Source: Amphiscolops sp. MND2022 | Taxonomy: Eukaryota | DNA: 64,000 nt | Direction of reading: 5' to 3' | Assembly (NCBI GenBank): GCA_964187785.1 | Contig: OZ076414.1 | Span: 71,920,001 to 71,984,000, forward strand | Shown here: piece after piece, positions 12,106 to 62,183 of the stretch | How the letters are laid out: each line of letters opens with the position of its first letter | Position numbering within the stretch: the stretch's first letter is position 1 | Program-made: the position numbers and the translations under genes | Notes under the pieces: model-generated | The model's input: only the letters and a program-made list of their open reading frames with translations | What the model was told of the DNA's origin: nothing | Database searches by the model: none

Positions 12106-12107
12106 AT

Positions 12108-29000: not shown

Positions 29001-29395
29001 CTTTGGCCATCGGCTGCACTCGAGTAATCTCTTCAACTTCCAAGAAGCGAGCAAGGTCCAGTTCCACTGCAACTTATTGACATTGGTAGCTACTTTTCAT
29101 TCTAACTTATTCTTTCCTTTAACGAGTTCTGTCATGTAAGAAAACTTATCGTCTTCGAGAGATATTAGTTAACTCTGTGTATATACTTATCAGGACAGAT
29201 ATCAATAATATAACTGTGATCATTTAGAAAATAAACTAGCATCTTTAATAGATTTTAGATTTGTGGGTTTCAGTATCGGAATAGTGAGAGCATTCCCTAA
29301 ATAGAATTTAGAAAAACAGATTACAATATCTGTTTGGTAAGAGCATTCACTAAAGAGATGATAGATTGAAGCAACTTTTTTGGACAAGATGTCAG

Positions 29396-29830
29396 TGAGC
29401 TGTTAAAAACTATCGTGGTTTTTGATCATATTTCTTTGAGTAGGTACATAAGAAGTCTTAGTTTCTTAACAGCAGTATCGTCTGAGATCCAAGATGGTAT
29501 CAGGATGTTACTAGTTAGCTATCTCAATTTTTTCTTTCTCTGAGATCTCAGTTAGCTCACTAGAATGAAACCGTTTTTCAGTCGAGACTCTGATTTTCTC
29601 CGAGTAGATATAATCTACAATAACATCAATGGGTATATATAATTAGATTGTCATGCTAATCAATCAAAAGCGACAACAGCAAGATGGGTTATAATTGAGT
29701 TGTCTTAAGTTATTAATAAAGTTATTTCAGAATGTTAATCTAGTCAAATGCAATTCACTTCGAAATGAAATGACATCTATTAGATTAGGTAACTTTCAAG
29801 TTCTTTGAGGACATGTATCATGGCATCACA
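29396..29830 (-). repeat. 3' LTR of element B (435 bp)
   Basis: Reverse complement reads TGTGATGCCATGATACATGTCC...AACAGCTCA. Confidence 0.9.
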
Positions 29831-30073
29831 ATCAACCGGGAAATTTTAGAAATTGAAAATCATTTCTGCACTTTGAGATTGAGGAGTTCTAGAGGTATTT
29901 TAGATGTTTTATGCATGAGTTTGTTTCAGATATCGTGTATATGAGCTTATTTTAGATATGAGTTCTGTTCTAAAATGTGCTGTACTTAAGAAGTGAGAAC
30001 AACCTATGACGATTTGACTTCTTACCTAAGTGACCATTCAAACGGGTGCAAAAGTTTCAGTTTCGGATGACTG

Positions 30074-33000
30074 TCAACTTGTTCTAGTTATTATTGACAA
30101 CGTGTTTACTACTATGGACTGATTTTTTGTATCTGCCATCGGTTTGTTTTGAAAAATATATCTACTTCGACATGAGTTATTCAGAGCTGAAAACTTTTCA
30201 AGTTGAAGAGCTATTTTGAGAAGTTTGTCAATGAAGTGTGAACAAACAATGGCGGGTTTTGAATCAAGGGTGAAGAAGTTTTGAAAAGTCAAAGTTCAAC
30301 AAAAGTGACTAGACGAGTGGAAGCCAGAAGCTTTGAACGATTGCAAGCTTCAAACATTGAACAATTGGGTGTACTGAAAGGTAAAGAAAATATTGTGTGA
30401 AAGTTGTTTGAAAACCTTTCTTAAACATTTTTTAGTTGACTATTGGGAAGTAAAACAAAAAGGTTTGAATCAGGTTTTGTAAAACTTTGTGTCAAAAAAT
30501 CTTAGAAAACTTTTGTACTGTACGGAAAACTTGTGTTCTAGAAAAGAAGTGGATTATAGGTGTATTAGAGAAATGTATCATACACAAAACAATGGTGGAT
30601 TAAAATGTTGTGGTTACAAGATAATTAGAGTATCGTTATAGACGCAATTGGGGGGTTATAAGAGATTACACTAGATGCAAATTTGGAAGACTATAAAATA
30701 ATATCAGGAATTCAAGATTACAGAAAAGTATGGTTAAGTTATAATTATTTATGATAAATAATTTCAACATTACAGTTACACTAGAGTTTGAAATTTGCGA
30801 TAAGTTAGACTTCAGTTCGGAACAGCTAGTGGTGGGAGACCAGTCAAGTGAGAAAGTTGAATGTTGGAGCGACGGCGGCATAGAAGAAAGAACAGTTCTG
30901 GGACGCGGTTGAAGGTGGCGGCGGTAGAGAAGAAAGACCATGTGACGATGTTGACTGCAAGAAGACCAGTTGGGAGCAGTTGAGGAGTGACGACCAGAAG
31001 TGACGATAGTGAAGACCAGTTCTGACAAAAGTGAAGATGTGGGCCAGAGCTGCAAAATGACGATGGATGATGGTGACCATTCGTGAAATAAGAAGATAGT
31101 GAAGATGTATCAGCGTTTTGTGTAGAGGTCGAGAACTAGTGAAACAACATGTTCCAAAACAGCATCATCAATGAAGGATGACGAAAAAGATGTGAATGAA
31201 CACGAAGAGTAAGTAGAGTTTGAGTTAGAATCCATTGTTTAATAAAATGGATGTGGTTTTGGCGTGTTCACTTGGTGAACTTTAGGATCGTATTTTTCCA
31301 ATTTTTGGGTGTAACCAAAATGAACTAGAGCGTTGTTAAAGGCGTCGCATGCTTCTGCGATTGTCATCTGGAAATATTCGTCTTTAGAAGTAAAGGAAGA
31401 ATTGATGACAAAAACCATGTCCGAAGTGGTTTCGCAGATTGCGATTTTGGGTCCTTCTAGGTGGATGCGGGCAGATTGCTCGAAACCTGTGTTTTTCTTC
31501 TTTTTTTGCAAACAATGTAGGGAACTTTCAGAAACGATCTCTTGTAGGATTGGTGACTTGATCTGTATTGATCTCTAAAGATAATTTGAATGTCATTGTA
31601 TGGAAAATTGCTGCTTTTAGGCTGTTAGCCTTTGTAGTAGAGACAAATTTCGTGGTTGTTATAGAGTCTGCTGGAGCCATGTCGTGAATTTTGTGAGAAG
31701 TCTTGGTAAAAGGGCTTGATGTGTGCAGATTTGGACCAAGCAGGCAAAGAAGGAGGAGGAAGAAGAATGGATGTTTCTAAAACAAAGGAGTTCTGAGAAA
31801 AATGACAACAATTTAGCAATATTCGTTCAAAAGTTAGGTTCTAAAGAAGTGTATATTTGGGTGCTAATACATTTTGTATTGTATTTGTGAAAATGTCTTT
31901 GTATTTTGTAGTAATTCGTCTGATAAGAATTAAAGATAAGTTTACACGTAATGTAGGAAAATATAGCATGTATTTGAGGTTCGAGGAAGGAGTTAAAGAA
32001 CAAGAATGCTATATGTACAGTAAGTTTTTTAAAACTAGGAGTTTTTCAGTTAAAAGTTAACAGTTGTGTCAATCAACTAAATGCAAATTTTGATAGGAGT
32101 TACAAAAATGTTATCAAAATATTACCTGGAATGTAGTTTAAAGTTTGAATGTTCCATAGTGTACCAGAGGAGAGGAAAGTTAAAGAAATTTGTATAACCT
32201 GGAGCGAGATCTAGTGAAGATTAATAGATTGTTAGTGTTTATAGATGTTAGTGTAGAAGTTTTTTGTTTTTGATGATTGGGATTATGCGTTGTGAGTCTA
32301 GATCAAGTGATTGTATACGAGTTTGTGTATTCGTTCAAAGGAATGCACTAGGTGTGTGAGAGTTGTGACAGCGGAATCAGAGGAGTTTTGTTCATATGGT
32401 TCCACGAAGTTATCGATTTCGCGGAGAGTACGATTATTGAGAACGTATGAGAGTTTTTCAGGAGCATTTTGAATTGGTGAGGTGTGTTCAGTAGTAGGAG
32501 ATTTCGTTAAGTCTTATGTTCAGTTTGTACCATAAAAGAGATAACTTTGGCAGAGATAACTTTTAGCATTTCATTATATGAATAAGATTGTTTAGAGAGA
32601 GCAGTATAGTAGGATTTATCTTTATCATCAAGTGGAGAAGAAACTAGATGTTTGATGACAGTGAGAGGTTTCACTATTTGAGTGGGAATATTGCAAGGCA
32701 AAAGAAAAACGTCAAAATGTATGAGATATTTTTGAGGTACAATAAGTGGACCTGACGTATCATTAAAAGGAAGCAAACAAAAGTATTGTTTTATAGGATC
32801 ATAGTTACGTAGATAGCCAGTTATACGAGAATAATCTATTGTGTACAAGTTAGTCATTGTATACTGTGAAGTATATTTGTAATTGACAAAAATATAGTTC
32901 TGGGGTTTGGAATGTTGTAGAAATTTGGTGTACGTTTGATGATGAGAAACTTTTTGAGCAACTAAGAGAAAGGAAGGATCACTTTCGTCGGCCTTGAGAT

Positions 33001-33573
33001 CATATATTTAACGGACGTAGAAAGTTGAATTGGAACGAGAAGATTTTTATTCAGTTATCAAGTCAGTATTGGTATGGAGACATGATTTTAGAAGCAATGG
33101 AAGTAAAAAACCTCGATTTTGTCATATAGACGAAATGTATAATCAGTAGGATACATATATAGAGAAGTGAGTTGTGCTTTGAAAATGATAATGTCTTGTG
33201 AGAGAAGGGGAATCAAATCATCATCTCTATTTGTAGAAAGTGAAGGTTTAGAAGGTAATGCAGGAAGAAGTACGGATGATGAAAGAAAGAGAGGATCTTT
33301 CATAATTTCGTAGCGTTTTTTCGGAGGTGGTGGTGTTTCGGTTGTATTATCTGGAGGAGTAGGCACTTTGGGAGTGTTATGTTCATGTTCCGCTTGTTCG
33401 GTATTGTGTGTAGGGTTAGTATTCGTCTGAGTTTGATACATATTTTCGAGGAAGAGAACAGGAGAATCATTAAAAAGAGGGGTTGTAGTGAGATCAGATG
33501 AAGTTTGTTCGAGTTGTGTTTGAAGGTCTATTTGTGCATGTGTCATGGTGAAACTTTTTGAAAAAGAGGACAC
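30074..33573 (-). pseudogene. Decayed accessory ORFs downstream of env in element B
   Basis: Consistently minus-strand ORF pieces (33088-33573, 32507-32857, 31625-31819, 31239-31511, 30666-31055) joined by single stops or frameshifts; no family recognised. Confidence 0.5.
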
Positions 33574-33787
33574 TAACGAGTAGGTTTATCGACTTTTTGA
33601 GGAGCAGGTACCAAAATACGAAGTCGAAGAGTAGGAGTGTCAGGTCTATTGACAGTTATTTCAAGTGTAGAAGAAAGCTCAATTTGAAGATTGATTCTAT
33701 TTTACCAGTAGTGAAGTAGGTCGTAGGTTTATAATATTTCAAGAGTAGTGGAGTGTTCGACAAGATGGAGACAAAATGAGTTGGAGT

Positions 33788-35027
33788 TCAAAACGATGGT
33801 GGCGGAAAATGATAGTTTGTTTTTGAATACATTTTGATGGGGGTGTCAGTGTCAGGATTGACAAGAGTGTTATTAAGTAAATTGTCAGTTGGAGTAGTCA
33901 GAGTGTCATGTTGAGTGGTGTTAGTAGTTGAATGATTAGGCAAAGTCGGATGTTGTTCTTGTGAAGCAGGAAGTGTAGAGGTTTTGTGATTGATTTTGTA
34001 TTGAAGAAACAGACGTTTTTTTGGGAATAATTTAAATAGTTTCATATGAAGTTTATTTGGACGTTTTGTATAGAAGATTGGAGGGGAAGTAATACCAGTA
34101 TGGTTATTAATTGAATTAGTTGAAATGTCAGGAAAGTTAGCTAAGGATTTAGAAGTTTTAAGGGGTAATGTGGGTTTCTGATGATGAGTATCTCTGCGGT
34201 CATTGACCATTTGAGCTGTAAAAATGTTGAAGGAACCTTGAGCTATGGAACTAAGAATGGTAATGTTTTGTTTGAGATTATATTTAATTGAAATTGTTTT
34301 GTATAGTTTTACGATGAGTGTTAATGTAGCTTGAACAAATAAGAATGTGGAGAAAGGAATCTGAAATCCATGTGGGTGTAAAAAGAGAAGTTAGGTTTAG
34401 AAATTTGTCATGTAAACCAATACGTAATGTGTTGTGAGGATTTTCATGAGGTGAATTTGTGTCATAACCAGGTGTATTGGATGAAATAAAGGAATAACTA
34501 AGGGCTTTTCCCAAAAGTTGGAGTGTAGAGTCAGAATGTTTTGAAAATAAAATTCGATTCCGAAAATGATCTAGTGCAGCATTAGAACATATTCCAGCAT
34601 CGTGTGCTGTAAAAGTATTTGGGCGTATTGTAGTTTTAATTTGAGAAGGAGTAAACATTAATGGTTGTTTTCGTTTATTAGGTTCTGGTCCAAGAATAAA
34701 AACATTTTGGTCATCAGAATCAAGGTCGAGCTCAATAATGTTACGAGGATTATTATCACATGCAATAGGAGTAGCATAATCATAAGTTTGTCTTGTAATT
34801 GGATCTACATACATAAGTGTACCTTCAAAATGTATAGGAATACAATCGAAGCATCGATCAGCCTTATATAAAGGAGATAAGAAATGTGGGCAGTCGTACA
34901 GCCAGGCAGTTGAGCCTTCAACGTATAAGAAGTTGCTACGATTTCCTGTGAGAAGGAAACCAGCAAGTTGAGGGTTTTGTACAGACATTGCAAGTATGGT
35001 AAGGAGTTGGTTACGTTCTAATTCATT
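33788..35027 (-). pseudogene. env: env C-terminal half: chuvirus/gB-like class III fusion glycoprotein remnant with TM region and tail
   Basis: ELERNQLLTILAMSVQNPQLAGFLLTGNRSNFLYVEGSTAWLYDC..DRCFDCIPIHFEGTLMYVDPITRQTYDYATPIAC; after a frameshift a hydrophobic STFLFVQATLTLIVKLY segment continues into ORF 33788-34210. Confidence 0.75.
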
Positions 35028-35304
35028 GGATATTGTTAATTTGATTTAAAATACTTTGAAAAGGTATTTGTGATTGGATAATTTCAAGTGTTTTATAACG
35101 AAAGTAATATTGGTGAGAATCATAATGTTCTCGTATTAAAGGAAAAGTATGTATACTATGAGGTTCTGTCTCAAATGAAAATGGGTTGGTGTATTGGAAG
35201 ATTAAGTTATGTAAAAATGGTATTACATCTTGAATGAGGGAACGTTTTTGACGTTATTGTGAAGGGAGTAAAAAAGGAGAAGGAAGCATTTGTTTAAATA
35301 ATAG

Positions 35305-35538
35305 TTAAGTTGAGTAATATTTTTGCCATAGAGGGTATAGGTATTGTAGAAGAAGGGATTTTGTATTGAATTAAGAGTTATATGGAATTATTTGATCTAC
35401 GAAAACAATCTGAAGGAAAACTATTAGTATTGTACAGAGAAAGAGAAGGAATTTATTTGGGATATTTGTAATAAGTGTATTAAATGTATGATAAATGCTA
35501 AGTAGTCCAAAAAGAGGTAGCATTAGACTTGTGAGCAT
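35305..35538 (-). pseudogene. Small hydrophobic ORF2 homolog in B (premature stop after 55 aa)
   Basis: MLTSLMLPLFGLLSIYHTFNTLITNIPNKFLLFLCTILIVFLQIVFVDQIIPYNS*FNTKSLLLQYLYPLWQKYYST*. Confidence 0.55.
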
Positions 35539-35557
35539 AAAGAAGAGATGTTATCTA

Positions 35558-35677
35558 TTAAACTTTGGGTATGAAAGGTACTAGAAATTTGTCAAAAAAG
35601 AGCGCAATACCTGCGAGAAGTGCTAATGAGAACCAAAGGCATATGATAAGTTTAACTATGTCATCAGCTGAAGGCAT
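35558..35677 (-). CDS. Small single-pass membrane ORF1 (39 aa)
   Basis: MPSADDIVKLIICLWFSLALLAGIALFFDKFLVPFIPKV*; about 20 uninterrupted hydrophobic residues; homolog in A. Confidence 0.6.
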   Translation of the reverse strand: MPSADDIVKLIICLWFSLALLAGIALFFDKFLVPFIPKV

Positions 35678-36402
35678 TTATATATATAAAATTATTTATT
35701 TATTTATAAAATTTATTTATTTAAATATATATATATATATGGGATGAAAAGGATGTTGTGAAAGTGTTTTGGAAAGGTATGGTTCAGATAGTTTGATTGT
35801 ACGTTAAGTTATGAATGTAAAAAACTTGGTATGTAAAATATTTGGATCCGTTACAGTGGTTTTGAAAAAGTGAATTTAGGTAGATGTTATAGAAGAAATA
35901 AATGAAGTCAGACGAAATGTTGTAGAAAACGTTTTCGTATTGGATGTGTGCCAACTGCTAGAGTTGATCCAAGTGGCTAGAACCAAAGTATTTTTACAGG
36001 CAGGAATCACTGGATAGCACTATAGAAGAGAGAAGAAAGAATGGGGAATGGAGGAGGAGAAGTTTTGAGCAGAAGACCTACACGTTTCGCACGTCTGCGG
36101 TAGGAACGAAAAGAGAAGAACAAAAAAAGCCAACACGAATTCACAATATGGTGGTTGGAACAAAAAATTTTCAAATGACAGGAATTACGTTGGTACGTAG
36201 CCAGAACCAAAGCAACACGGATCAATTTCTGTTAGAAATTGGTTGCATTGTTGAGTTAATAACTGTAGATAACGGTAAGAAGAGGAGAAACGGTATGTCG
36301 AACAAAGAAGTATCTGATTAAAAAATTCAGAAAAGATGTACAAGAAGAGTAAAGTTGTTGTAGGAACGGGAGAGAAAAGAGAATTTTCGTGATCGCATCA
36401 AT

Positions 36403-36841
36403 TGAGCTGTTAAAAACTATAGCGGCTATTGATCTTATTTCTCTGAGTAGGTACATTAGAAGTCGTAGTTTCTTAACAGCAGTATCGTCTAAGATTCAAG
36501 ATGTTATTAAGATGTTACTAGCTAGCTATCTCTATTTTTACTTTCTCTGAGATCTCAGTTACTTTACTAGAATGAAACCGTTTTTCAGTCAAGACTCTAA
36601 TTTTCTCCGTGTAGATATAGTCTACAATAACATCAATGATTATAGATAATTAGATTGTCATGCTAATCAATCAAAAGCGACAACAGCAAGATTGGTTATA
36701 ATTGTGTTGTCTTAAGTTATTAATATAGTTTGTTTCAGAATGTTAATAATTTAGCCAAATTCAATTTACTTCGAAATGGAATGACATCTATTAGAATAGA
36801 TAACTTTCAAATTCTTTGAGGACACGTATCATGGCATCACA
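36403..36841 (-). repeat. 5' LTR of element B (439 bp)
   Basis: TG...CA, followed by AT-TGATGCGATCACGAAAATTC. Confidence 0.9.
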
Positions 36842-39046
36842 AGAAGTTCATGGTGAAACTCGGTAAACTTCCCGGTATGAAATTTTTGCCAATTTATTGA
36901 TGAATCGCTCAAGCAGGTTGATACAAGTGGAAAACAACGTTGAAATATTATCGCATAAAAGGTTCCTTTAGGGTACAAACGGCATCTTCCTAATAGGTTC
37001 TTATCGAACTTGCCTAATGTCTAACCGGTACTAAGATGACAATTTTTTGTTTGACATGTTATGAATTAGTCTTTAGAGAGCGTAGCGAACGTTGTAAGAA
37101 AATTAGTAGTGAAGCGATCTTTGAAACGTCAAAAGTTGTGTAGTAGTTTCTGCCACGGCCAAGTTGTTCGTTTACTTTTAAATTTCAAATTAGAAACAAA
37201 AGGACTAACAAAGTTAGAGAAGACGTACAAAACAACCCAATATACAAATTCTGTTGTTGAAAATGGAGTTATTTTATTTGATTCCGTTCAACTCGTGATT
37301 TTTGTGTCAATTTGTTTTGGAAAAATGAACATCGGCTCCGTTGATGCAGTACGGGAAAAGCACTGAGTAACAGCAATGTGTATTTTTTCAATTCGAAATT
37401 CGTAACCTTATGAAGCCATAATAGCTCTAAGCAAATTAAAGAATGGCTGTAAGATGCCCTTGGGTAGGCACCGAAAATTATGCACAGGTGTTCCAGGTGC
37501 AGGCTCTTACTATAATCACCGGCAAGATCACCGATAAAATCACCCATAACATCACCGACTGTCGATACCCTTGTTGAAACTGCTTGAACTTTTTGCATGC
37601 CATCAACTTTTATTATGACTTTCTGAAACTCTTACGAAAACTTTCATGCGTGCATGTTGAAGGTAATACTCAATCCAAACTTTGGTCGTTTAACCCTAAT
37701 CAACCCAGCGTGGAAAATGACTTGTAATTCTACATGTTTACCATCCGAAGTTAGCTCAATTTTCTAATTTTAAAAAGTAACCCTGCATGCAGGATTGCAG
37801 CATGTAAAATGTTTCTGAAGTTTCAACTAGGGTAAGGAACTTCAGTTGAAAGTTCAATTCTGGTCAAGAACGCACTAATAGCATTGACTAAATGATCTTG
37901 TCAAATCTAGCGTTTCCGAAACTTGTTTGGCAAAAGACGAAAGTTTTGACAAAAAACGAAAAGGAGCCAATATGCCCTAACTTGAAAAATGTGACAATTA
38001 GGAAGAATGTCATTTTTAAAAATTTTTTCAAGATTTTTTTTTCGAGAAATTCGTGAAAAAACTTGTAATTTAGATTCAGAGCTACCTGAGGAGTATTCTT
38101 AAACTGGCATTGTTTGTTTTTTTTGACAAAAAATATCACCAAATACATCGCAACTTGGTCGAAAATTGACGAATACGAAGTTTCCATAACCTAAGGAATT
38201 GTTTTGGGAAAGAGATTTTGAAAGCTTTCAAAGATTTTTTTCAAGATATTTAGACAATGTTTTCAGATTTTAATTTTTGTGAAACATTTTTAAGCAATTG
38301 GGCCATTTCAACCTGAGCCAAGGCAAGCAAAAATGTAAAAAAGGCAAGCAATTTCAACGAGGGATGACTGTCGAAAAGAGAATTGGAATCCAGATGACGT
38401 AAATATGCATTTCGAATGAGAACGTTTCAATTTGTGAGTGGTGTGAAAACATTCGTCGACAATGAAGAAAGAAACGGAAACACATTTGCTTCCGGTTAAG
38501 GAATTGAAATTGAACGAATTGAAAATTCTCACTCAAAGACGTGAAATTGGCTTTGTGTTGTGAAAGATGTCGAAAATATTGTATAGCTATCCTCTGTGGC
38601 GAAGCAGTAGATCAGATTAGAAACTATTCTGATTAGATTTGGTCTGAGAAAAAGATACTTGAATTTAAGTCGAAAATCCGTAAATTTTGGAATTTCATGT
38701 ATTTTTTGCAAAAAAACGACGACAATTTCTCTCGAATAAATTTTCGCAAAAAGGTAGTTTTGCTCCTTGTACGGAAACATTGACATCGTATGAGTTTGCA
38801 AGTCCGAGATATAGGATTTCAAAACAAGAAAAATAGATTAAAAAATCATATTTTCATGTTTTTTCGGAAAAAAATCATGAGGACGAAATTTTTCAAACTT
38901 TTATTCAGCAAGTTTTCAGTTTAGGCAAGTTCTGAATGTTGATAAAGCCATGAATCGTGTTGTTGCGTGAACTCATTTGTTATGTTCAGTGTGCAATGAA
39001 GTATATTTCGAATTGTATTCACAAATGTACAAGTTTACAACTTTAC

Positions 39047-39289
39047 TTTCAACTCTGACTCATCATTAGTTTGTTTCGATGCTACATTTTATGAATAGTT
39101 TGTGAACAACAATCACTTTTGGTTGGAAATTTCACAGAGAAGTCTTCATTGACGTTATGCTTTTACAAATAGAAATTACTTGAAATGAATCAATCGTAAC
39201 TTTGATTTATCCAACCCATGATGGAAAAAAGAGATTCTTTCAATTAAATCCCCAGTTTTCCCCGGGGCCCACGCCAGATAACCGTGAAA
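39047..39289 (+). repeat. Copia 5' LTR (TTTCA...TGAAA)
   Basis: Direct repeat of 44017-44259 with one G/A difference. Confidence 0.95.
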
Positions 39290-39303
39290 GGTTATGGGCC
39301 CAG
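39290..39303 (+). promoter_or_regulatory. PBS GGTTATGGGCCCAG, complementary to the anticodon arm of initiator tRNA-Met (half-tRNA priming type)
   Basis: Exact complement of CTGGGCCCATAACC in tRNAiMet; the same PBS is used by Drosophila copia. Confidence 0.9.
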
Positions 39304-39884
39304 GGAAAATCCCCACCTGCTAAAAACGATTGTCTGAAGTTGCCTATCTGGAAAGAACCCAGCAAAAAAAACCCGAAAACATCTTCCAGTTTTCAATTTT
39401 TCCAAAATGTTATGGAACATTGAGTACGCGAAAAGTCCAAAAGTTTGCTGAGCAACATCCTACGTCTAACCAACACAAAGGACCCGTTGTCTTGAAGGCA
39501 GAAATTTTTTAAAAAAGAACATTAAACTCAAATTTTCTTTCAAATTGTGCTAAAAAAGTCAGTAGTTGAAACGTAAATTTTTGGGTCCATTTCCATTTTG
39601 AAAAATTTTATAAAATATAAACGGTTGAACTGGCTCTATGATAACGTTTTTAGTCCAGTAAGCCAATATCGAACATAGAATTGTTCGCTGGTTGTGATAA
39701 ATTTGAAAACAAAAAACTCATTTTGTGACTTTTGTTCGAATTCCAATGAATGGATAATTCTATCCAATAGTCGAAAATAATTCACTGCAGTAGTACATTT
39801 GTAGATTTGACATTATTTTTGTTCAATTCCATACTTCCTTGATTGTTTGTTGTCTGTTGCTTGTGTTGTTGAGTGCTGTAGCGT

Positions 39885-42800
39885 ATGATGATGGCTGATA
39901 ATTTGTTTGAAGACGGTGTTGGGAAGCTCAGTCGTGTCCTTTTCAGTGGAAAAGAGGATGATTTCACATACTTCCAAGAACAGTTTGAGGCTCGTATGTA
40001 TTGTTTGAAATTGTTGGATGTAATGGAACGTCGCGTAACAGAGAAAGAGATGGAACAAAAGTTGAGAGAAGGAACTAATCAGGAAGGACGTAACAAAGCA
40101 AAGGAGAAGGCTGAAAGTATGATGAAAGATAAGAAAAGAATGATCTGGTGTGAGTTGGTGCAGGCGTTAGACAAAACTAATGTCTTGTACCTGAGGTCTT
40201 ACAAAGGCGACGGACCGAAGGCTTGGGAGGTACTACAAGCAAAGTACAAAAGTTATGAGAGAAACTAACAAGTCTGCGGAAGTTGCCATCGGAGAACATA
40301 ACTGAGTACATTTGTCGCGCGGAGACATGTCAATATGAGTTGAAACAAGTTGGAGAGGCTGTAACAGAGAAAATGTTAGTCGCAATGGTTTTGAAGGGAC
40401 TCCCACGAGAGTATGAGACGTTCGTGACGCTGGTCAAGTTCAGTTGTGAGTCCAAGAGCCTCGATGAAATCAAGAGAGACCTGATTAATTTTGAGAGTGA
40501 CAGGAAAATGAAGATCAAGGGAGATGTCAGCGATTCGGTATTGTACGTGGGAAAACCAACACGAATCAAATGCTACAACTGTAATGAAGAAGGTCACAAA
40601 GCAATCAATTGTCGCAACCAAGATAATGTTTTTTGCTCCAACTTTCACAAGAAAGGTCATTTTACCAAAGACTGTAGAGCCAAACGACATGGCAACCAAG
40701 AAAACAGTAACCAAGGCAATAGTAGGTTTTGCTCATGGTGTAAAAGAAATGGCCATACAGTGCGAAACTGTTTCCAGAAAAACAAAGCAATGAGAAGTGA
40801 GATCATTTGTGACAAATGTAAAAGAAAAGGGCATAAAGCGGAGGATTGCTTTGCTGGCAGGACATCTGAAAAAGTGAATTTTGTTGGTGACGAAGATGGA
40901 AAAGACGAATTCAGTTTCTTCATAAACACTGGTTTTCGTGCTGTTTTTGTCATCGACTCAGGGTGTAGTAATTACATGATAAAAGATAAACACTTTTTCG
41001 TTGATTTGGACGAGAACGACTATGGTGCCTATGAATGTGCTAACGGAACTAATTCTAAAATAGAAGGCAGAGGAAGAGCTGAGTTCTATGCAACCAAGAG
41101 TAATGGTGATTCTGCAAAAATTATTCTCAAAGACGCGCTGTATACACCAAGAAATGGTCAGAACCTGCTATCCGTAGCCAAGTTGAAAGAAGCCGGCGCT
41201 TCTTTCCATTTTGCAGAGCGCGATGAGATAGTAACGAAGGATGGAACCATTTTTGCGTTGGAACCAAGAAACAGTAACCAATCCCACAATTGACATGGAT
41301 AGCAATCATTGTAACCAAGAGGAGCAGTGTTTTGCATCAAGTCTGAAAGTTTGGCATGAGCGCTTGGGGCATACTAACTACAACGACTTGAAACGGTTAT
41401 CAGAACATGTCGAAGGGATGAAGATAAGTAACAAAGATGAAGCCATTTGCGGATGTTGTGAAACAAACAAATCTAAAAGAAGGCCGGTACCAAAAGATAC
41501 AATTACTCGTGCAACTGAGGTACTCGAAATTGTTCACACGGATGTTTTGGGTCCTATTGCGAACGAGTCACCTGAGAACTTCAAGTATGCAATTGGTTTT
41601 GTGGATAGCTTCTCCCGATTCATCAAAGTGTACTTCATGAGAAGCAGGGATGAAGTTCTGGAAAAATTTCAGCAGTTTTGTTCTGATATAGGAAATCCAC
41701 GCATGGTTGTCAGTGATGGTGCAAAGGAATTCACATCTTCTGAGTTCAGATCATTCTGTCGTAAGCGTGGAATAAGACATGAAACATCGGCACCTTATAC
41801 CCCGGAGGAGAATGGGAAAATTGAAAGAGTCTGGGGAACAGTGGTTGGAATGACAAGATGTATGTTAGACAATGCCAGTTTGGGGAAACAATATTGGCCG
41901 TATGCACTCAATTATGCATTTTACGTGAAGAACTTCTGTTTACATTCTGCAATTGGAATGACACCATATGAGCGCATGTACGGTGTGAAACCCAATATTG
42001 AATTTTTGCGAACATTTGGTTGTACGTCCTATATCTTCATTGAGAAGCAGTTTCGTAAGAAGCTGGACAAAACAGCGGAAGTCGGAGTGTTTCTAGGCTT
42101 CAGTGATAACTCCAAAACCTATATCGTGGGAATACCAAAAACAGATGGATCACTGAGAATCATGAAATCACGAAACGTTAAATTCGAGGAGGGAAAGATG
42201 TTCATGAAGCAACATGCGATTTATGGTCCAAGTTCATCAAATAACCAAGACTATACAGAAAACCAAATTTCATCACATGACATCCAACCAAATCCAATCA
42301 GCACTAACGACAACAACACTAATAGCCACGTCAGTCGAATCCATAGAAAGTCAACAATTGACGAGCAATTCAGCTTTGTAGCGGAGGTTGAAGATACTCT
42401 AATTTTGAACGAAGAGGTACCAAAATCTGTCAACGAAGCTTTGAAGGAAACAAGTTGGGTGAAAGCAATGGAAGACGAACTCCAATCGTTGAAAGACAAT
42501 AAAGTGTGGGATCTTGTGGAGCTACCAGACGGGAAGAATTCGATCGGCAGTCGTTGGCACTTCACAGGAAGTTCGGACCGAATGGAAAGCCATGTCGACA
42601 TAAGGCAAGGTTCGTGGCAAAGGGATTTAGTCAACGTGAAGGAATTGACTACAAGGAGACATACTCTCCCACCGCTCGCTTGTCAACAGTTCGGGTAGTC
42701 ATGAACATTGCTGCACAAAATAGTTGGCAAATAAAGCAGCTCGACATCAAGACAGCCTATTTGAACGCTAATGTCGATGCCGACATTTTCATGAAACAGC

Positions 42801-43981
42801 CTGAAGGTTTCGAGGAGAAAGGCCCCAACGGAGAAAAACTTGTTTGTAAGTTGAACAAAAGCTTGTATGGTCTTAAACACTCTGGGAGAAACCGGTACTA
42901 TACGTTGAAAGCTTTTCTAGAAAAAATTGGTTTCGTTGTATGTGTCCATGACAGTTGTTTGTTTGTGAGGCACGTGAATGATTGTGTGAATGCTGTTGTG
43001 TGTGTGTGGGTTGATGATATCATTTATTGTGGAAAGGATGATGACTTTGTTGATTGGTTTGAGAAAGAAGTAAAAACAAAGTTCCGTGTGAGTGAATGTT
43101 GTATGTTGAGTTGGTTTCTGGGAAAGAACGTGACTGTGAATGAAACTTCGATTACTGTTAACCAAGAAAAGTACATTGAGAATCTATTGAAAAAATTTGG
43201 TATGAGTGATTGTAAGGCTCTTAGTACACCGATGGCTGAGCATGTGAAACTGACCAAAGACATGTGTCCTCTGAAAGGTAGTGACGAAGAAAGAGTGATG
43301 AGTGAACGTAACTATCGTGGTTTAGTTGGAAGTTTGAACTATCTGTCTTTGTCAAGCAGGCCTGATATTGCTCAAGCTTCGCATGTCCTCAGTTCCTTTT
43401 TGGAAAACCCTGGCGAGCAGCACTGGGTAGCGGCTAAACACGTTTTGAGATATTTACAGAGAACAAAGGATCTGTGTCTGACGTTTAAAAAGCGTGACAG
43501 TGGAATGGGCCTTGTTGGTTATTCTGATTCTGATTGGGCTGGAAATGAAGATCATCGTAAGAGTACATCCGGTTATTGCTTCAAGTTGAATGAATCATCA
43601 GCATGTGTGAGTTGGCTGAGTAAAGTACAAGGTACTGTAGCCACATCCACTGCTGAAGCTGAAATGAATGCTTGTGTGAGTGCTGCCCAAGAGTCTGTTT
43701 ATCTGACTGGTTTGTTGCGTGAGTTGAGTGTGCCTGTTGTTGAACCTGTATGTTTGTACGTTGACAATCAGGCAAGTATAGAATTGAGCAAAAATTCATT
43801 GCACCATGGTAAAACAAAACAATTTGCCACAAAACTACATTTCATTCGCGATTTATGCGAAAAGCAAAAAGTGAAGTTATTATACACTCCAACCGACAAA
43901 CAACCAGCGGATATTTTGACCAAAAGCTTGGGAAGAAACAAAACCCAAACATTTCGAAAATTTTTGTTAGGGAACATGTAG
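39885..43981 (+). pseudogene. gag-pol: Copia gag-pol polyprotein split by three frame disruptions (near 40270, 41270 and 42560)
   Basis: CCHC knuckles; FVIDSGCSNYM (protease); WHERLGH..CGCC (pre-integrase); VHTDVLGP/SDGAKEF/PEENGKIER (integrase DDE); KARFVAKGFSQ, QLDIKTAYLN, SLYGLK, WVDDII (RT); YSDSDWAG..RKSTSGY..STAEAE..DNQAS..ADILTK (RNase H). Confidence 0.95.
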
Positions 43982-44003
43982 GTGAGGGTCAAAATGTAGC
44001 GCC

Positions 44004-44016
44004 GAAAAGGCGGGGG
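44004..44016 (+). promoter_or_regulatory. Polypurine tract GAAAAGGCGGGGG
   Basis: Abuts the first base of the 3' LTR. Confidence 0.85.
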
Positions 44017-44259
44017 TTTCAACTCTGACTCATCATTAGTTTGTTTCGATGCTACATTTTATGAATAGTTTGTGAACAACAATCACTTTTGGTTGGAAAT
44101 TTCACAGAGAAGTCTTCATTGACATTATGCTTTTACAAATAGAAATTACTTGAAATGAATCAATCGTAACTTTGATTTATCCAACCCATGATGGAAAAAA
44201 GAGATTCTTTCAATTAAATCCCCAGTTTTCCCCGGGGCCCACGCCAGATAACCGTGAAA
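44017..44259 (+). repeat. Copia 3' LTR
   Basis: Direct repeat of 39047-39289. Confidence 0.95.
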
Positions 44260-44817
44260 TTTACAACAGTCAATGCCAAGTTTATTCTCCGTCTAGGAAC
44301 TCAGTTATCCACATTTAAGAAGATACAGCATGTTGCACTTGACTTGAAACCTGTTTCCAGAGTTAAATAGCATCCAGTTCTAACAGACCTCCGCAAGAAG
44401 AGAAGAGTAGAATAGCAAAGGCCAGTGTTATTGTGTGGGTAGCAAGCATCGGAGGCGAGGAATCCAGAAAACTCGCAGTGTACGCTGCGCCGGCTGCCTG
44501 CTTGCACGCAACTCGCTCTTTTAACAATTCATCTTGTATTTCTGTATCTACAATATATGTTCAATATTTTTGTTGTAACTTCCGCTTTTTGTTGAATATC
44601 GGTAAATAATGGTGGGGAATCTTTGGTTGCAGGACGTTTAGACAGGATACTCTCAGCTACTCAGATTATACTAGCTCTTTTCCTCTATACTCTACTTGTT
44701 AAGAGTTGGGGTGTCTCGACTTGAATGGAGTGGAATGGGATGGAATTGCGTGCCCGTTTGCACTGGTGTGCTAGGGAGACATCGCAAGAGGACCAGCCGA
44801 TCTCCGAGGAGCAGAGG

Positions 44818-47900: not shown

Positions 47901-48838
47901 GCCAAAACGGACCTGAAAAATCCAAAATTGCAGGACTGTCGGTGCCTTATACCTAACGGGCACAGCCAATTCAAGGTTTATCTCAGTGCTACGAGTCGTG
48001 GGGCAACACGTTTCCCAGCCGTACCACTTCTTGAGGTGACCTTCTTAGCCAATTTGCGCAATTTGCGAAAAAATAGTCAAAAATCAGTGCCTTTGTACAG
48101 GGTTGAAGGTTTAATTGAGCGTCCGCGCTAAAACTGAATTATCCCTGTGGCTTTGTGGACGGCTGTTGGTATCAGTTACTGAAGGTGGTGCGAAATTTTG
48201 CAACACTTGTTGAAAAATTGACGAAATTAGACTGCATAGAAAAGCGCACCAAAAGGCTGTTTTTCTGAATTTTTTTCCGAGTGAGCCCGGCACCTGAGTT
48301 GAAAAGTGAAACCTTGTTGCCACTCATCATCGTAACTGGTGCTGGTAAATACGTTGTTGTGGAAATCGTGACATTTCTAGCTTTTGTCAATGTTTCAAAA
48401 TTTTGAAATAAGCATGAAAAACAGTGCACCTAAAGAGTATAGGGTACCGCACGTCCAAATTAACATCAATCTTGGAAAAAGTCATTTGGCTCAAGACCAA
48501 TTTTGCTATAGTGTTGTACACCCACCACAGGGTTGCGTGGCCAATTTTCTAGTGATTCTGACGTTTAGACGCTGAGTACGAGCAATCTTGAAAAGTGTTT
48601 TTTTTTTTTGAAAAGTTTGAAAATTGAAAAAAAAACTTCATTGCGCGCGGGCTAACAGTTCAATAGGCTCCGAACGCTTGTTTTCCGACCCTACGCATCC
48701 GTTCTAATACACTGTGCAAATTTCGTATTGATACGACCACTAGATCGAATTTTGAACTTTTTGAGACGTGTCGAGGCGCTCTTTCCAGTTGAAAGGGGGG
48801 AGGGAGCACATACCGCAGCATGCTGAAGCACAAAAAGC

Positions 48839-49061
48839 GCCGGAGTCAACAGCACGTGAGGTCAACTTCAGTATCAGCGCAATATCTGACTTAACCTCAG
48901 ACCCCAAGGGGGACGATTGGCCAACTGATGACAGAGGGTCTGAAAAATTGGGCTCGATTATAAATATGTCATCAGTTGGCCAATCGTCCCCCTTGGGGTC
49001 TTAGGTTAAGTCAGATATTGCGCTGATACTGAAGTTGGCCTCACGTGCTGTTGACTCCGGC
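48839..49061. repeat. 95-bp inverted repeat (2 mismatches, 33-nt spacer)
   Basis: 48839-48933 is the reverse complement of 48967-49061. Confidence 0.95.
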
Positions 49062-49288
49062 ACTGAAGCCCAATTTTTCAGACCCTATGTCAGATAACGT
49101 ATCAGAAAAGTATCAGACCAAGGCGATTGCTAGAGCGACCGATGATATCTCGGAGCAGATGACACGGGAGCATGGCCCAACTCCAACAAGACCCACTGCG
49201 AGGAGGAAGTAGAAATAGGCTGTCTGAATGATACGGGACAGTTAAAGGCACCCAGCAGGGCAAGCGAAAGCACCGCACACACCACAGA

Positions 49289-52200: not shown

Positions 52201-54377
52201 CCATATCTTTCCCGAAATTGTGTGTGCGTTTGCTAAAAACTAATACAAGCAGAAGAAGAACCTTTTGTTGTTCAATACCAATGGAGTGCTGTGCGTCAAG
52301 TATCCCAAGAGCCAAAGAGCAATGCATGAACATCCATGCATGATCATGATACCGCAGCTGTACCAACACGAAATACTATTCAAAGCTCACGATGCAATGA
52401 GCCACCAAGGTATTGCGAAGGTTCTAGCGAGAATACAGGAGCGCCACACCTGGGTCTGGTATACGCCGAACCATTGGGCAGTATGTTAGCCAGTGTATAA
52501 CACGTCAACAAGTGCGCGAAAAGCCTGGTGACGTGCGATTCCACCTAAAGAGCATCCAAAGTGGCTATTTCAATGAGTTGGTACAATATGACCACTTGAA
52601 GGTTTGTCCTTTTCATGATTGAAACACTGGAATACTGGTTATCATTGACCATTTAACAAAATTTGCCGAAGCATTGCCATGCAGTCATGGTGAATACGAT
52701 GCAGTGACTACCTCTAAGCTGCTGTGCAATAATGGTTTGCTCGTTATGGTACGTCAACAAGAATGCAATCCGACAATGCGCCCAACCTCACCGCAGAAGT
52801 ATCTACTGAACTTATGAAGCCGTGACAAGTAACCAAAGTGACCTCCACCGCTGGCCATCCCAGAACCCAAGGGCTAGTTGCACGCCAAAGCCGGACACTG
52901 CTGATTCTACTGCGTGTGTTTTGCTCTCGACGAATGCGAGACTGGGATCAGTATTTGGACAAAGTAATGGGTGCGTATAACTCTACGCGCCATGCCACTA
53001 CTGGATTTTCTCCGTATATGCTGACTACAGGCATGGAGAAACCGATACCACTCAATTTTTTGTATCCGGAATTCGCCACGCAGTCATTCGAGTCACATGA
53101 GGCATTTGTGGATCATTTCTTAGCCCGACAAAAAGAAATTCATGATTTGGTTCGACGCAACGCACACCAAGCCCAACAACGACAGAAGCTCAAGTACGAT
53201 TGGGTTATTCACGCCCAAGCATACGAGGTCGACGAACCAGTATGGATATTCTGTCAATACATCCCGATGAAAAGTTCTCCCAAGTTGATGAGAGCATGGC
53301 GTGGTCCCCACTAAGTAGCACGACTGCTACTTGAAGGACGCGTTTACATACTCGATGCGGGCCTGAAGGTGCACTTTGAACGACTGAAACCGCACCATGG
53401 TGGACCAACAGAATGGGCTGCTGTCATCATGGATCCCGACCCAGAGCAGTCTCAAGAAGAGGTGCCAGACGACGCTTTGCGGCCCTCCTACCGTGAAAAA
53501 GAACCAATATCAGAAGCGAGGAACGCCTCTTTACCTTCCCGACAACAACATTGGATGGACACTAGACTACGCACGCGTATGCGTGCTGGCGGTAGTCGCC
53601 TTCACTACCAACAATTCGACTATTCGTCAACTGATTCTGGTGACGAACGATCCGATGTACTCATATCAAGTGCTCAGGCCAACCCCAACGAGAATGATAT
53701 CCTAACACTGCCAAAGAGTGAACCCGCCCCTATTCTCGAAATCCCAACCTCACCGCTACCACCTATGGAGGCTCTGTTTTCGGAAAATGAGGCGGCGCCA
53801 GACGCAAAGGCTGACACGCCGGATCACCCTGCCCGTGCATTGATCGACAGTGCAGGCACTTCATTGGCCGGCACGTCTGCTCCATTACTGACGAATCCCT
53901 CGCTCACAGACATGTTGAGTAACTTTCCCATTTGGCCGCAGATAGACGGTCACTACACTCCAGAAACGAGAAACAGCGATGCGGAATTGCCTATATCTGA
54001 CGATGAGAAAGAGCCTCTCCCTGTTACGACGATTCCTACTACTGCTACCACAGCCGTAGCCAAGCCCACCCATGCTCAAGAAAGGCAACCGAACCGAAGA
54101 CCGCGAGGACGTCCCCCCGGAAGAGCAAAGCCACGTGCATCAAAATTACGTGACCGTCCTAAAGAGGTGAACTTAAAGGCAAGAGAGGGCGTCCCAGAGG
54201 CAGACCACTTCGGGCAATATATATTGGCCCCGAAACCTGCACTAGTCCCCACCGCACCCCTTCCGTGGACACCGACTCGCCTGCTCCCAGTGCCGCAGGA
54301 ACCTCAGATCAAGCGCCACTTCTAGAATCAACCAATGCACGCTATGGTCTGCGACGCGATCGAGTTCCCAGATATCG
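49289..54377 (+). mobile_element. Element D: decayed Ty3/Gypsy of a GC-richer family (gag-like N-terminus, RT, RH, IN, long C-terminal extension); capsid and protease deleted
   Basis: LRFCCDFRPLN..KDAYPLPRIDE, SIDLAWAFWQ, KTAF..GLFEWRRMPF, YIDDIVI; LDTDASDVAISGILHQ; HQGIAKV; YDHLKV..IDHLTKFAEA..SDNAPN..HPRTQGLV; KLMRAWRGPH; no LTR recognised. Confidence 0.85.
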
Positions 54378-55763
54378 TTGCTAATTGAGGATTCTTAACT
54401 GACATAGCTAAGATTGTTAACAATTGTGTTCTTTCTAATTCACATACTAGGTGAAGAGTGTTTAATTCTTGTACTGTCATTGATTTAAAAACTTGATTTA
54501 TTGTGAAGTCGTTTTTTGTGTTGATATGAGCATTATAGTCCAGAGTGGCGAAGTTGTTTGATACATTTAGTGCAGGAAATAAATACTTCTTATTAGAAGT
54601 ATCAAATTGAATCTTTCCACTAATTTTTTGATCTATTATTGAGTGTGGTTTCGGTTGTCCATTTTTCATATCAAAACCATCTAAGTATGTAACAAAGATG
54701 TCGTCGTATTGTGTTGAATATAATGTTTCTGGTTTTCCACAAAAGGTTTGTGCAATTGGGTATATCTCAAATCGAGAAAGCCTTGGATTTTCTACAGTTG
54801 ATTGTGGTGTTTTGACATTGGGATAATTTGTTCCTTGTATTCCTTTGGTTTGAAGGTTTTGTGTAATGTTTGAGGATTTGATAAAGTTATCAGTTTCTAT
54901 CCAATATCGGTCTTTAATCCTTGTCATTCTTCCAATGAATTCTCGTAATCGAAATATGAGGCAAAGTTTTCATTGTCCACTTGAATGAGAACATGGTAGT
55001 ATGTTTCCAACGTGAATCATTTGGTTGTTTTTATCATCATATGTTATTTCAGCATTAGTTATTCTGAGTTTCCATTTTTTTGGGTGATTAAATGTTATCT
55101 GTCGCTTCTACATCTTGAATAACTATTTTGTGTGAAGTTAACTATCCAGTCTTGGTAATGTTTATCATATACGAATGTTCCGATATGCCAAGCGTGTAAT
55201 TTTTCTCCTCTAAATGGTTGTTGAACTTGTTCAATTTTTTTTGGTAATCACTGTTATCAAAAAATGAGAAGGAACTTTGTTTATTGTAACTATTTAGTTC
55301 GTTACTATCGGTTGCGTTTGAATAATTTATCATATTTTTGCATTCAACGGCATCGAGTATATTTGGAAGTTCTAATGTATTTTGTCCCCAGTGTAAACGA
55401 TCATATCGTCTACTAGATGTAAAGGTTTGGGAACACCAAACTATTTCGGTTTTTGTATATGCTTCACAATTAAAGGCTTGATACTTTTTGATTTTGCTCT
55501 AAAATATACTGTTGCTTGGGTTTTTGTGTGTTGTATATCTGAGGGTGCTTGTTTACATGGTTCAACATTTAGTAAGCTAAACTGTCTTAAGTTGTTTTGT
55601 TTTGCACAATCTTAATGGGATACCATAAAGTTCAAGATATTTGGGTCTTGTTCTGAAATATGTTTCTCTGGATTTGTTGTATCAGCTTTAGGGACTGAAC
55701 TGATGTAGAGTTAACTATGTGTATTATATATGCAATATATGTACTGAGAAGTATGTTTATCAT
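54378..55763 (-). pseudogene. env: env N-terminal two-thirds: chuvirus/gB-like class III fusion glycoprotein (frameshifted)
   Basis: Signal-like MINILLSTYIAYIIHIVNS; LYG.DCAKQNNLRQFSLLNVEPC; FNCEAYTKTEIVWC; LDAVECKNM; FCGKPETLYSTQYDDIFV; LDYNAHINTK; CELERTQLLTILAM. Confidence 0.8.
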
Positions 55764-57250
55764 GGTAAAAATGTAGTTCTATAATTAAGTACTGAGAAGG
55801 GATTTAAGAAGTTTATATGACCTGTTCTAATTTCTGGTAATTCTGCGTCACAAAGACAAGATATTGATGTGACTAAAAATGGTGAGGGAGATGTTTTATG
55901 TGCTACTTTTGTTGAAAGCGAAAATGGGTGAGGTTTTAAGGAGTTGAATGTAACTTCAACTTCGAATTCTAATACTAATTGATCTTCTTGTAATCTTCGT
56001 AGTTCTTTTTGTTTTCTTGGGTTTGCAAGAAAACTATTGTTCAAAAATCTAGCAGGGAGTACAGTGTATCGAGGATCTTCGTTAAGACTACGAATATTAT
56101 TGGAGTTAACACGAATAGGATATTCGTGTGGGTTTGGTGTAGGAGGATTCGAATATTCTTCTAGAAAATATTCGGGTAATTGTTTGGATGAATCAGATAG
56201 TATTGAACTAGGTGTATGATCTCGTGAGAAGTTTGCGGCACTATCTGATATAGTTTGAGGGTCTTCTGATAGAAGAGATGCTGATTCAAATCCTGATGTG
56301 ACTTGAAATGGTAATGATAAAGATGGTATTGTGGGGTGAGAGGAGGAAAGAGAAGGAGTTTCTGATCTGGGTTGTGCGTGTTGTCTAAGTCTTGAGTTTG
56401 TACTAGAACTAGTTAAAGATTGTATTTCTTCGTGATTGGGATCTGAGGTTATAACTATGTCGTGGTACTCTGGTGCTAGCAGTCGAATCAGAGTCTTTGT
56501 TTTTGTAATATAGGTCTGTTAAAGAAGAAGCAGTGGTTGATTGTAGGCGTTCTAGTTTTGGGTATAATTGAGAAAATGTAAATGATTTTAGTTCAGCTGG
56601 TGAACTAGCTATATGTTCTGGTATAGTTTTTATTGTGGTTTGACTTGTTGATGGTGAAGCAGAGTTCTTTGGTAATGTTGGTATAGAAGTTTTTCTAATT
56701 GTTTTTGTTGCAGTTGGTATCCTATGTGGACAAGAATTAATGTATTGAAGAACTGGGCTAGGATCAGGGATATGAAGAGTACGAGTAATCGGTGGAAGAG
56801 GGGGTCTGTTTAGGATACTTGAAGTATCTTGTACAGTGTTATGGGTTGCGAGTGATTCATCACAAGAGTCACTTGTTGGTGAACTTGTTTCTAAAAATAG
56901 CATGTTTTGTGGAGTGTATTGTGGTTGATTTATTATGATTTTTTGTGGTTGAGTTGTTATTACTGATGTTTGAGTTTGAAGTATTGGTGTATTATTAGGC
57001 GTCACTGTTGCTCTATCAGGAGAATATGGAGCAGATGGGCTATGATTTGAGGATCAGGAATCCAGTATGTCTGTATCTGAATTTAGGTATGCGGTATATT
57101 CAGGTAGTGTTTGGAATGAATGTGTTGAACTAGATGATGAATTGTTTCTGGCTGATGAAGGTGAGAGTCTATGTCTATCAATCTTGAAGTATTTTCATTT
57201 TGGTACTGTATATTTCAGTCTTTGTTTCAATTACAATTTCTTTTACCATC
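55760..57250 (-). pseudogene. Accessory ORF between pol and env (~480 aa reconstructed; S/T/P-rich N-part, ~100-aa ordered C-terminal domain)
   Basis: ORF pieces 56409-57005 and 55760-56044 are linked by an open S/P-rich frame; its TGA overlaps the env ATG (ATGA at 55763-55760). Confidence 0.55.
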
Positions 57251-57309
57251 TCTTTTTAATGTTTCTTTTTTCAGGTTACTATCTATTACTATTTATCTCA
57301 AACTTTCTC

Positions 57310-58900
57310 TCAGCAGGATTTCTGAGAAAATGAAATTATATCCTTTTCACCGAGGAAAAGTCGATAGTCTTTTCGTGGTTGTGGGCGGAAATAGTATCTG
57401 TCATAGGTGTGTCTACGGGGATTAATGTAGTTATCGTAGTCATGAATATCCGATTGGTTTTCTGAGTTGGTATTATTGGTTTTTTGTTTATTTTGTTGGC
57501 ACGGAAATGGGGAAAATTGGTTAAATGAATCTGGTTGAAAGTCAATTGTGGATGGTATATCCGTTTCTTTATTGGAATTTGTGAATGTGTGGTCTCCGTC
57601 TTCAACTGATTGTTCTTCATCGGAAAAAGAATCAAAAGGCTTTATTGGGTCTTTCACATTCGAGTCCATATTATCATTATCATCATCATTTGAATGTGGA
57701 TTATATTGTTATAAAATGAAAGTAAAAATGATTGGTTCTTTTGGGCATCTAAATGCTTTCTATGAATATGAGATGTATAACCATCTTGATTAACATTTTC
57801 ATATGTAATTTCAGAAATTTTATTTTTGGTTTTAAATGGTCCAATTCTGAGAGGTTTTAATTTATCCAAAAATGAACATGGAGAAATTTTTTTTAGTACA
57901 AAAGTACCAATGTCTAAGGGTCTTGGATTGTTGTATGTTTTATTGAAATAAGCAAATGAATTATTTTTTCGTTTAGTGTTTTCATAGACTGTGTGATAGA
58001 TTTGTATCAATGCAGTTTCAGTAGCCAAAACCCATTGTGGAATTGGTTTCGATAAGATCTTATGGAAGAAAGGGTTCAAGTTTGATTTGTCATAATGTGT
58101 ATGAAGTGGTAAATCCTGACAGTATTGAGAGGTACAGTTTCTCTAAGTATCTCTTTGAAGATTGAGTTCAAAGTTGATTGGGTTTCTTGGTATGGTATGA
58201 AAGACTATTTCGTACGGTGAAAGATCTAATTCAGAAAGTGGTTGTGAATTATGTGCATAAGCGTACATATGGACTTGGGTAGACCAGTTTTCTGGTGTGT
58301 TATGTAGAAAAAGTCTGAGATGGGTCCCAAAATTTTGCAAGGTCCAAATGGTCCAAATGTTTGCAAGTTCAGAATTATTGTATTCTGAACCACGATCTGT
58401 AACTAAATATATGGGAGGTCCAAATTTGGTAATCCAATGATGTAATAGGGAAATGACAGCGTTTTGAGCATTGTTTCGTTTAACAGGTACTGTTACTACA
58501 AAGTGACTAAAAGCGTCTACTATCACATGAATGTATGAGTTTTGTTTTAATAGTGGATTTATAGGTCCTTTTGTATCCATTGATATTCTGTATTCAAAAT
58601 AAGAAGCATTTTCTGAAAATGTTTGTATCGTTGCGGTTTGAATTTTTTGATTAATGTGTTTGTTTTGTTGACATTCAATACAATCGTGAAGGAATATCGA
58701 CATCCATTTATTTAAATATGGTATAAAACAAAATTGAATAAATTTTTTAATGGATATTTTAATTCCTGAAAGTCCATGTGCATGAAATTTATTGAAAGCT
58801 GCATGAAAGAGTTTAAGTGGTAAACATATTTTCGATTTGGGTTTGAATCATGAAGGTTAGGATAATCTGTATGAATGATCTTTGTATCGTGGTTAATGTA
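57310..58900 (-). pseudogene. pol: Integrase with GPF motif and acidic C-terminal tail (element C)
   Basis: CIECQQNK; ISMDTKGP; VIVDAFSHF; VTDRGSEY; KLKPLRIGPF. Confidence 0.9.
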
Positions 58901-59446
58901 CAGTTGATTGACGAGTTTGTAGTAAACTGATAGGAAGGAATTACTTGCTATTGCTAGATCTATTTGTAAAGATCTTTCATTAGTCTTTAACCAATGATAA
59001 ACTTTTTGTAAGACAGGGTCTTGTTTTTGTTGAGATTTTATAGTTTCAATTGTTATTTGAGTATCTTCTGGTATGAAAATATTTTTGTAATTGACAAAAG
59101 ATGGATCAAAAAATGGAACTTGTTGATAACAGTAATCAGACTTAGAGGGGTACTGTATTGCTAGTGTTTGTTCTTTCAATGTGTTAGTGTTTTGATTCGT
59201 CTTATTTTGTGATTGATTTGGTTCACCTTCATCACTAAGAATATCAGTGTCATTGAGGATAGTTGATTGTTGTAAAAATGATTTTGCTTGATTCATTGTA
59301 GGTCTCTTGTATTTGGATTCAAATGGAACAATGGATTGAAAAGAAAATGAATCTAAGGGTTTTATATGAATGTCTTCTCCTTTGTTGTTTATACGGATGT
59401 AAAATTGGTCTCCGCCATAGTCAGCGAGAATTGGATGGCAACTTTT

Positions 59447-62030: not shown

Positions 62031-62183
62031 GTAATATAATGTCTTTTCCTTCAGAAGCATGTATAAATAGTGGACAAAACCAACTATAAGGAGTAATTGT
62101 ATTTGCAATTTCAGTTATTTGGCATGTATGAATTTCAAAGTTAGTACTATCTTTGTCGTTGGTAGATTTAACATCTATTTGAT

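Follow-up and report, generated by a model that had tools for sequence, protein, structure and literature searches.

The window analysed here is a stretch of 64,000 nucleotides from Amphiscolops sp. MND2022 (contig OZ076414.1, positions 71,920,001 to 71,984,000 of the forward strand). It contains a Ty1/copia retrotransposon, whose features are collected in Table 1. Matches to PF14223, PF00098, PF22936, PF13976, PF00665, PF25597 and PF07727 follow one another in the Ty1/copia order, RNase H being placed by position only, and direct LTRs are found together with a site for primer binding (PBS), a purine tract (PPT) and a duplication of 5 bp at the target site (TSD), as in Pseudoviridae. The ends are not TG...CA, which is a typical but not a defining trait of Ty1/copia elements, with published exceptions.

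The gag-pol region is not intact. Compared to P0231, an intact relative with a single ORF, it has three frame changes, and the pieces amount to four frames' worth. The initial annotation had described the element as young, in agreement with the identity of its LTRs at 242 of 243 positions (the single mismatch, G/A, is at LTR position 108), but had not mentioned these frame changes. Judged by the identity of its LTRs the copy is thus young, but as assembled it is not autonomous. As it is frame-broken, it was likely mobilised by an intact relative, or else it was damaged after insertion or misassembled. Proteins 88-97% identical to those of the element are found on other long contigs, and indicate a multi-copy family; the protein P0104 stands for 24 member sequences.

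Table 1. Features of the Ty1/copia element (positions in the window)
Feature	Position	Strand	Evidence or remark
Left target-site duplication, TTTAC	39042..39046		Boundary scan
5′ LTR, 243 nt, TTTCA...TGAAA	39047..39289	+	Repeat comparison
Predicted RNA hairpin of U5 with the PBS, the last six bases of the LTR forming the loop	39254..39310	+	Folding prediction only
PBS GGTTATGGGCCCAG, abutting the LTR	39290..39303	+	Same motif in L002 and L004; presumed half-tRNA-iMet type
N-terminal Gag piece	39882..40268	+	Matches residues 1-118 of the intact relative P0231; frame changes near 40190-40265
Remaining Gag (PF14223, zinc knuckles PF00098) and protease (PF22936)	40259..41293	+	Frame changes near 41260-41305
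Integrase (PF13976, PF00665, PF25597) and start of RT	41235..42698	+	Frame changes near 42567
Integrase loop and helix at the catalytic Glu, PEENGKIERVWG	41790..41870	+	Clade signature
RT (PF07727) and RNase H-type C-terminus	42503..43981	+	RNase H by position and motifs, without a Pfam match listed
PPT ending GCGGGGG, abutting the 3′ LTR	44004..44016	+	
3′ LTR, 243 nt, TTTCA...TGAAA	44017..44259	+	Repeat comparison
Right target-site duplication, TTTAC	44260..44264		Boundary scan

Both LTRs start with TTTCAACT and end with CCGTGAAA, so that the 5-bp inverted terminus TTTCA...TGAAA reads as initially annotated, and the four landmarks invoked for it coincide: LTR identity extends 0 bases outward beyond either boundary, the PBS begins at +1 after the 5′ LTR (39290), the last base of the purine tract GAAAAGGCGGGGG is at -1 relative to the 3′ LTR (44016), and the TSD is perfect. 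Given the local base composition, the chance of the TTTAC 5-mer match is ~0.0013, and that of a 5-bp inverted end ~0.0021. TG does not occur at a distance of up to 8 bases from the LTR start, the sole TG in the interval 39030-39070 being at 39056, and the CAs closest to the 3′ LTR end are at 44246 and 44265. Scanning of shifts of +/-15 bases revealed no TG...CA or TC...GA boundary with a TSD. The PBS would match a half tRNA-iMet (the anticodon arm of the initiator tRNA-Met); no tRNA gene was found within the window.

The host site is a short tandem, with TTTACAAC on both flanks (39034-39046 and 44260-44267), possibly the footprint of an earlier event. Shifted "TSDs" of 4-8 bp can be drawn from this host tandem; they were discarded, as they require extra bases at one LTR that are missing from the other. 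The initial annotation had also raised the possibility of a truncated copy, in which TTTACAACA, found 3′ of the 3′ LTR, would belong to the LTR. This segment is mirrored upstream and missing in the 5′ LTR: because TTTACAAC also precedes the element, and because the 5′ LTR ends at the PBS, TTTACAACA is host DNA. We conclude that the TT...AA ends are real and that the copy is no truncation. A Gypsy-type neighbour at 29390-36839 serves as an internal control, since its TG...CA ends with a 5-bp TSD (CAAGA) argue against a general distortion of LTR ends by the assembly. This neighbour, on the minus strand, is a decayed LTR element, one fragment of which matches the viral fusion glycoprotein family PF24664; it resembles the gB-type env-carrying Gypsy elements described in PMC13524379, and related relics are present near 11792-15500 and 54328-63020.

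Relatives were examined among 154 Copia loci, 76 of them from metagenomes (80 of 557 relatives, taken from 15 of the 64 parts of the collection) and 78 from contigs filed as prokaryote genomes. In RT trees, the clade of the window element comprises 19 of 113 rows (SH-aLRT 99), 22 of 154 rows (99) and 19 of 34 rows (support 100/98). At least three of the 154 loci listed belong to it (L002, L003 and L004), and none of the 78 prokaryote-filed loci does, for tree rows with at least 330 aligned residues. These 78 loci (L088-L165) are of eukaryote type and probably reflect contamination; one of them, L097, is embedded in a contig of 2.77 Mb filed as a prokaryote genome. Protein scans of viral contigs yielded no relative, and the pattern matches obtained there (1 and 10) were without Copia homology and were excluded from all counts. 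The clade may already carry a name; exact-word searches of open papers on it found no end motifs.

The GCGGGGG tract of the window element is common to L002, L003 and L004, and is followed in each case by T-N-TCA, namely TATCA in L002, TGTCA in L004 and TTTCA in L003. In both L002 and L004, one LTR can be read through to TGATA, followed by the same PBS; L003 stops 13 bases past the PPT, with its U5 end out of view. L002 and L004 run from PPT to PBS without flanks or TSD, and the integrated ends of all three loci are deduced from the primers alone, the window element being the only integrated copy with flanks. The canonical TG at +1 in L004, after the same PPT, fixes the register and gives TNTCA...TGANA as the end of the clade. 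Across these sequences the second and penultimate bases vary while the terminal T and A are kept, and the relatives show that the odd ends are a lineage trait. L003 is the first branch in the clade (94/94 for the remaining members). Since an AU test does not reject a grouping of the window element with L003 (p 0.099), TT may be ancestral or may have arisen twice.

A wider view of U5 ends was obtained from junctions with a half-tRNA-type PBS, i.e. with a GGTTATGGGCCCAG-type motif at +1, of which 43 were found in the other Copia loci (among the 154 listed). All 43 end in A. At the 41 junctions outside the clade, this A is preceded by C in 33 cases (one locus accounts for three of them), by A in 4, by T in 3 and by G in 1, whereas CA is seen in 0 of the 3 clade members whose U5 end is visible (AA in the window element, TA in L002 and L004). 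These DNA-level counts leave out the close proteins P0107, P0110, P0111 and P0231. The AA junctions of L021 and L029 read as CA followed by a 2-base spacer, 2 bases being present also between PPT and TG; some elements with a half-tRNA-type PBS may therefore undergo 3′ processing. L029, an apparent precedent for TT...AA, was rejected, as it reads TG...CA with 2-base spacers. For 6 of the 41 outside junctions, on several branches, the penultimate base is not C and no spacer explains it. Outside the clade and without the integrase signature described below, L075 has TG...AA, with an identical LTR pair (105-324 and 4634-4853) and no visible TSD, L015 has TA...TA (LTRs 1-151 and 4538-4688), L053 a ...GA end (1651), L100 and L161 have ..TA ends, and L132 has ..AA. 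AA at U5 is thus not unique to the clade, as L075 exemplifies; special to the window element is that CA is lost from both of its ends, the TSD being proven.

Could the family trim two bases and integrate as TC...GA or with other ends, the window copy being an aberrant unprocessed insertion or an assembly artefact? The constant core TCA/TGA sits exactly two bases inside, L021 and L029 have spacers of this length, the insertion lies in a short tandem repeat, and the three frame changes might be sequencing indels. Yet the window copy keeps TT and AA at its outer ends, next to the perfect 5-bp TSD, and is therefore untrimmed; no TC...GA boundary comes with a TSD, and the register is fixed by the TG of L004. 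Trimming or an artefact is, in our judgement, very improbable.

Copia elements without TG..CA are already known as a kind. The ends TGGA, TATA, TACA, TGCT, TACT, TGTA and TCCA have been described, Tos17 (TG..GA), AtRE1 (TA..TA) and TARE1 (TA..CA) being plant examples (10.1101/137141), as well as TGGT and TGTT in lotus (PMC9804982), and AACA and TGTT in Rosaceae subfamilies (PMC5659011). Drosophila errantiviruses have AGT...AnT (PMC5408687), and a chimeric Gypsy consensus has CT...AA (PMC3587641). With TATA, TACT and AGT...AnT in print, the initial statement that known exceptions mostly keep TG or CA-like ends was too strong. TTAA is not among the motifs in the accessible text of 10.1101/137141, PMC9804982 and PMC5659011, and the accessible part of a metazoan Copia survey with 24 named clades (PMC11889832) does not discuss ends. 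An exact-word search of the open literature, blind to Repbase, GyDB and subscription journals, returned no report of a TT...AA Copia; a single match was a SNP haplotype, not an LTR end.

The plant non-TGCA elements resemble the window element in being Copia, with short LTRs (mean 272 nt, 243 nt here), a 5-bp TSD and T as first base (10.1101/137141), and the ends of L002 and L004 are the known plant types TATA and TGTA. TTAA breaks two regularities of the lotus elements, a purine as second base and C, G or T as third (PMC9804982); the plant motif TCCA already has a pyrimidine as second base. The env-carrying Gypsy relics near the window element also suggest that its host is no plant. The Rosaceae TGTT and AACA are likewise two-base departures from TG..CA, for which divergence of the integrase has been suggested, but they change one end and are non-palindromic, whereas the window element lacks CA at both ends and has a 5-bp inverted pair (PMC5659011). 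Errantiviruses, like the clade, are a whole lineage without TG..CA, with inverted ends of 3-7 bp; they belong to the Ty3/gypsy superfamily and have lost the terminal A, which the Copia clade keeps (PMC5408687). A PBS that abuts the LTR and is presumably of the internal tRNA-iMet type would liken the window element to the half-tRNA-primed Hemivirus (Ty5, copia, 1731 and Osser; PMC1181622).

A comparison of integrase residues, proposed in the initial annotation, led to a signature beside the catalytic Glu. The motif there is PEENGKIERVWG, compared to PQQNGVAERxNR in most Copia (from 102 loci outside the clade and 53 close proteins, with much redundancy among the close proteins). No change affects the catalytic Glu or the adjoining Gly and Arg, and the changes that flank this Glu are Q to E/D, V to K and R to G. 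Signature counts were made on non-redundant representatives (147 of 150 aligned over the helix), split at 45% identity. The combination [ED]161+K164 is present in 19 of the 20 representatives at or above this limit and in 0 of the 127 below, and G170 in 16 of 20 against 5 of 127. W169, present in 17 of the 20 close representatives, was discarded as an indicator of odd ends, since it occurs in 34 of the 127 distant ones and also in L019 and L022, both CA-ended. Of 120 long polyproteins, 112 could be aligned over the helix, and the full motif is confined to two of these, P0231 and P0232. The motif stretch aligns gap-free to PFV integrase at Glu221 (numbering counted by hand), an enzyme in which Pro214-Gly218 stack on the terminal adenine (PMC6784120). 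G170 corresponds by hand count to HIV-1 Lys156, and residues 148, 152, 155, 156 and 159 of helix alpha-4 of HIV-1 integrase contact the LTR end (PMC2794180). We read the signature as a location and a co-occurrence within one clade, not as causation: the clade is one evolutionary event, and a signature can come by descent without a link to the ends.

The motif is carried by L002 (TA/TA) and L004 (TG/TA) as well as by the window element (TT/AA), and so is not specific for a single base. With the PBS at +1 and the PPT at -1, the cDNA is predicted to be blunt, without need of 3′ processing, so that the in vitro 3′-processing assay suggested in the initial annotation would be unsuitable. If a half tRNA-iMet primes at +1 and the G-rich tract at -1, both strands of the blunt cDNA would carry AA-3′, and the integrase would join these ends without 3′ processing and with a stagger of 5 bp. 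Recognition of the penultimate base would be loosened by the residues that have changed on either side of the catalytic Glu, and the inner TCA/TGA would probably be read in place of that base. On balance we favour an integrase that, in this TNTCA...TGANA clade, joins blunt ends and needs the terminal A, and not the C that precedes it. More tentatively, we may be dealing with an unnamed Copia clade of at least ~20 distinct lineages with a rebuilt end-binding integrase helix, where the C of CA-3′ would be dispensable, so that elements could start with TG, TA or TT and end with TA or AA interchangeably.

The altered end specificity put forward in the initial annotation could also be a switch, the integrase of each family having co-evolved with its own palindromic end, and that of the window element preferring AA-3′ at both ends. 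TT...AA takes two independent changes, at the U3 start and at the U5 end, and these are complementary, as in the TA...TA of L002; of the three elements whose two ends can be seen, two are symmetric (TT..AA and TA..TA), which fits a family-specific preference. L003, a deep branch, also has TTTCA, and its grouping with the window element is not rejected by the AU test. The best tree nevertheless splits L003 from the window element, and two symmetric elements of three would arise by chance in ~16% of cases if the base were free (hand arithmetic). The asymmetric TG...TA of L004, with the same helix motif, is better accommodated by a loosened requirement than by a switch to AA. Altered specificity, as initially proposed, is still an inference, and relaxed reading of the C seems more likely than a switch, which we regard as unlikely.

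It might also be that nothing is special in this integrase, and that half-tRNA-primed, blunt-end Copia integrases in general tolerate NA-3′ ends inside the particle, the signature being unrelated. The six outside junctions without C or spacer fit such a tolerance, and in lotus, elements that differ in their ends group with one another (PMC9804982). The Ty1 integrase, which like that of the window element (as predicted) is provided with blunt cDNA and does no processing, takes AA ends in millimolar Mn2+ (PMC8487063), and has been called rather relaxed in vitro (PMC2939329). At physiological metal, however, it performs concerted integration with CA only and rejects AA, and Ty1 LTRs all end in CA, whereas those of the window element end in AA (PMC8487063). 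The 33 CA ends of 41 outside the clade, against none of three inside, also argue against a general tolerance, which appears rather improbable to us.

Why LTR-retrotransposon integrases keep CA-3′ is poorly understood (PMC5659011). The window element is without C at both ends, in the AA form that the Ty1 integrase rejects at physiological metal, and the pairing of this loss with a few testable integrase residues is its main value. The TA and TG variants of its relatives, together with the shared helix signature, provide named residues and substrates for direct testing. If the relaxed reading of the penultimate base is true, the clade would offer a natural series from which to explain the need of DDE integrases for CA. 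For annotation, the expectation that such elements are missed by LTR finders holds for motif-filtered searches, which would drop the family of the window element: LTR_retriever accepts TGCA and seven other motifs, and TTAA is not among the seven as counted from the text. It does not hold for LTRharvest, which can run motif-free (10.1101/137141).

At the 5′ LTR junction, folding predicts a hairpin in which U5 pairs with 13 of the 14 PBS bases. Over 65 nt its z score is -3.14, the strongest of the 43 junctions folded, this segment size having been picked after the hairpin was seen, and over 111 nt it is -1.95. The hairpin was not seen on folding of L002 or L004, and in L004 the PBS is predicted to pair with downstream sequence instead. 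Further along the window, at 48836-49064, lies a 98-bp inverted repeat whose arms are 97% complementary and separated by 33 bases.
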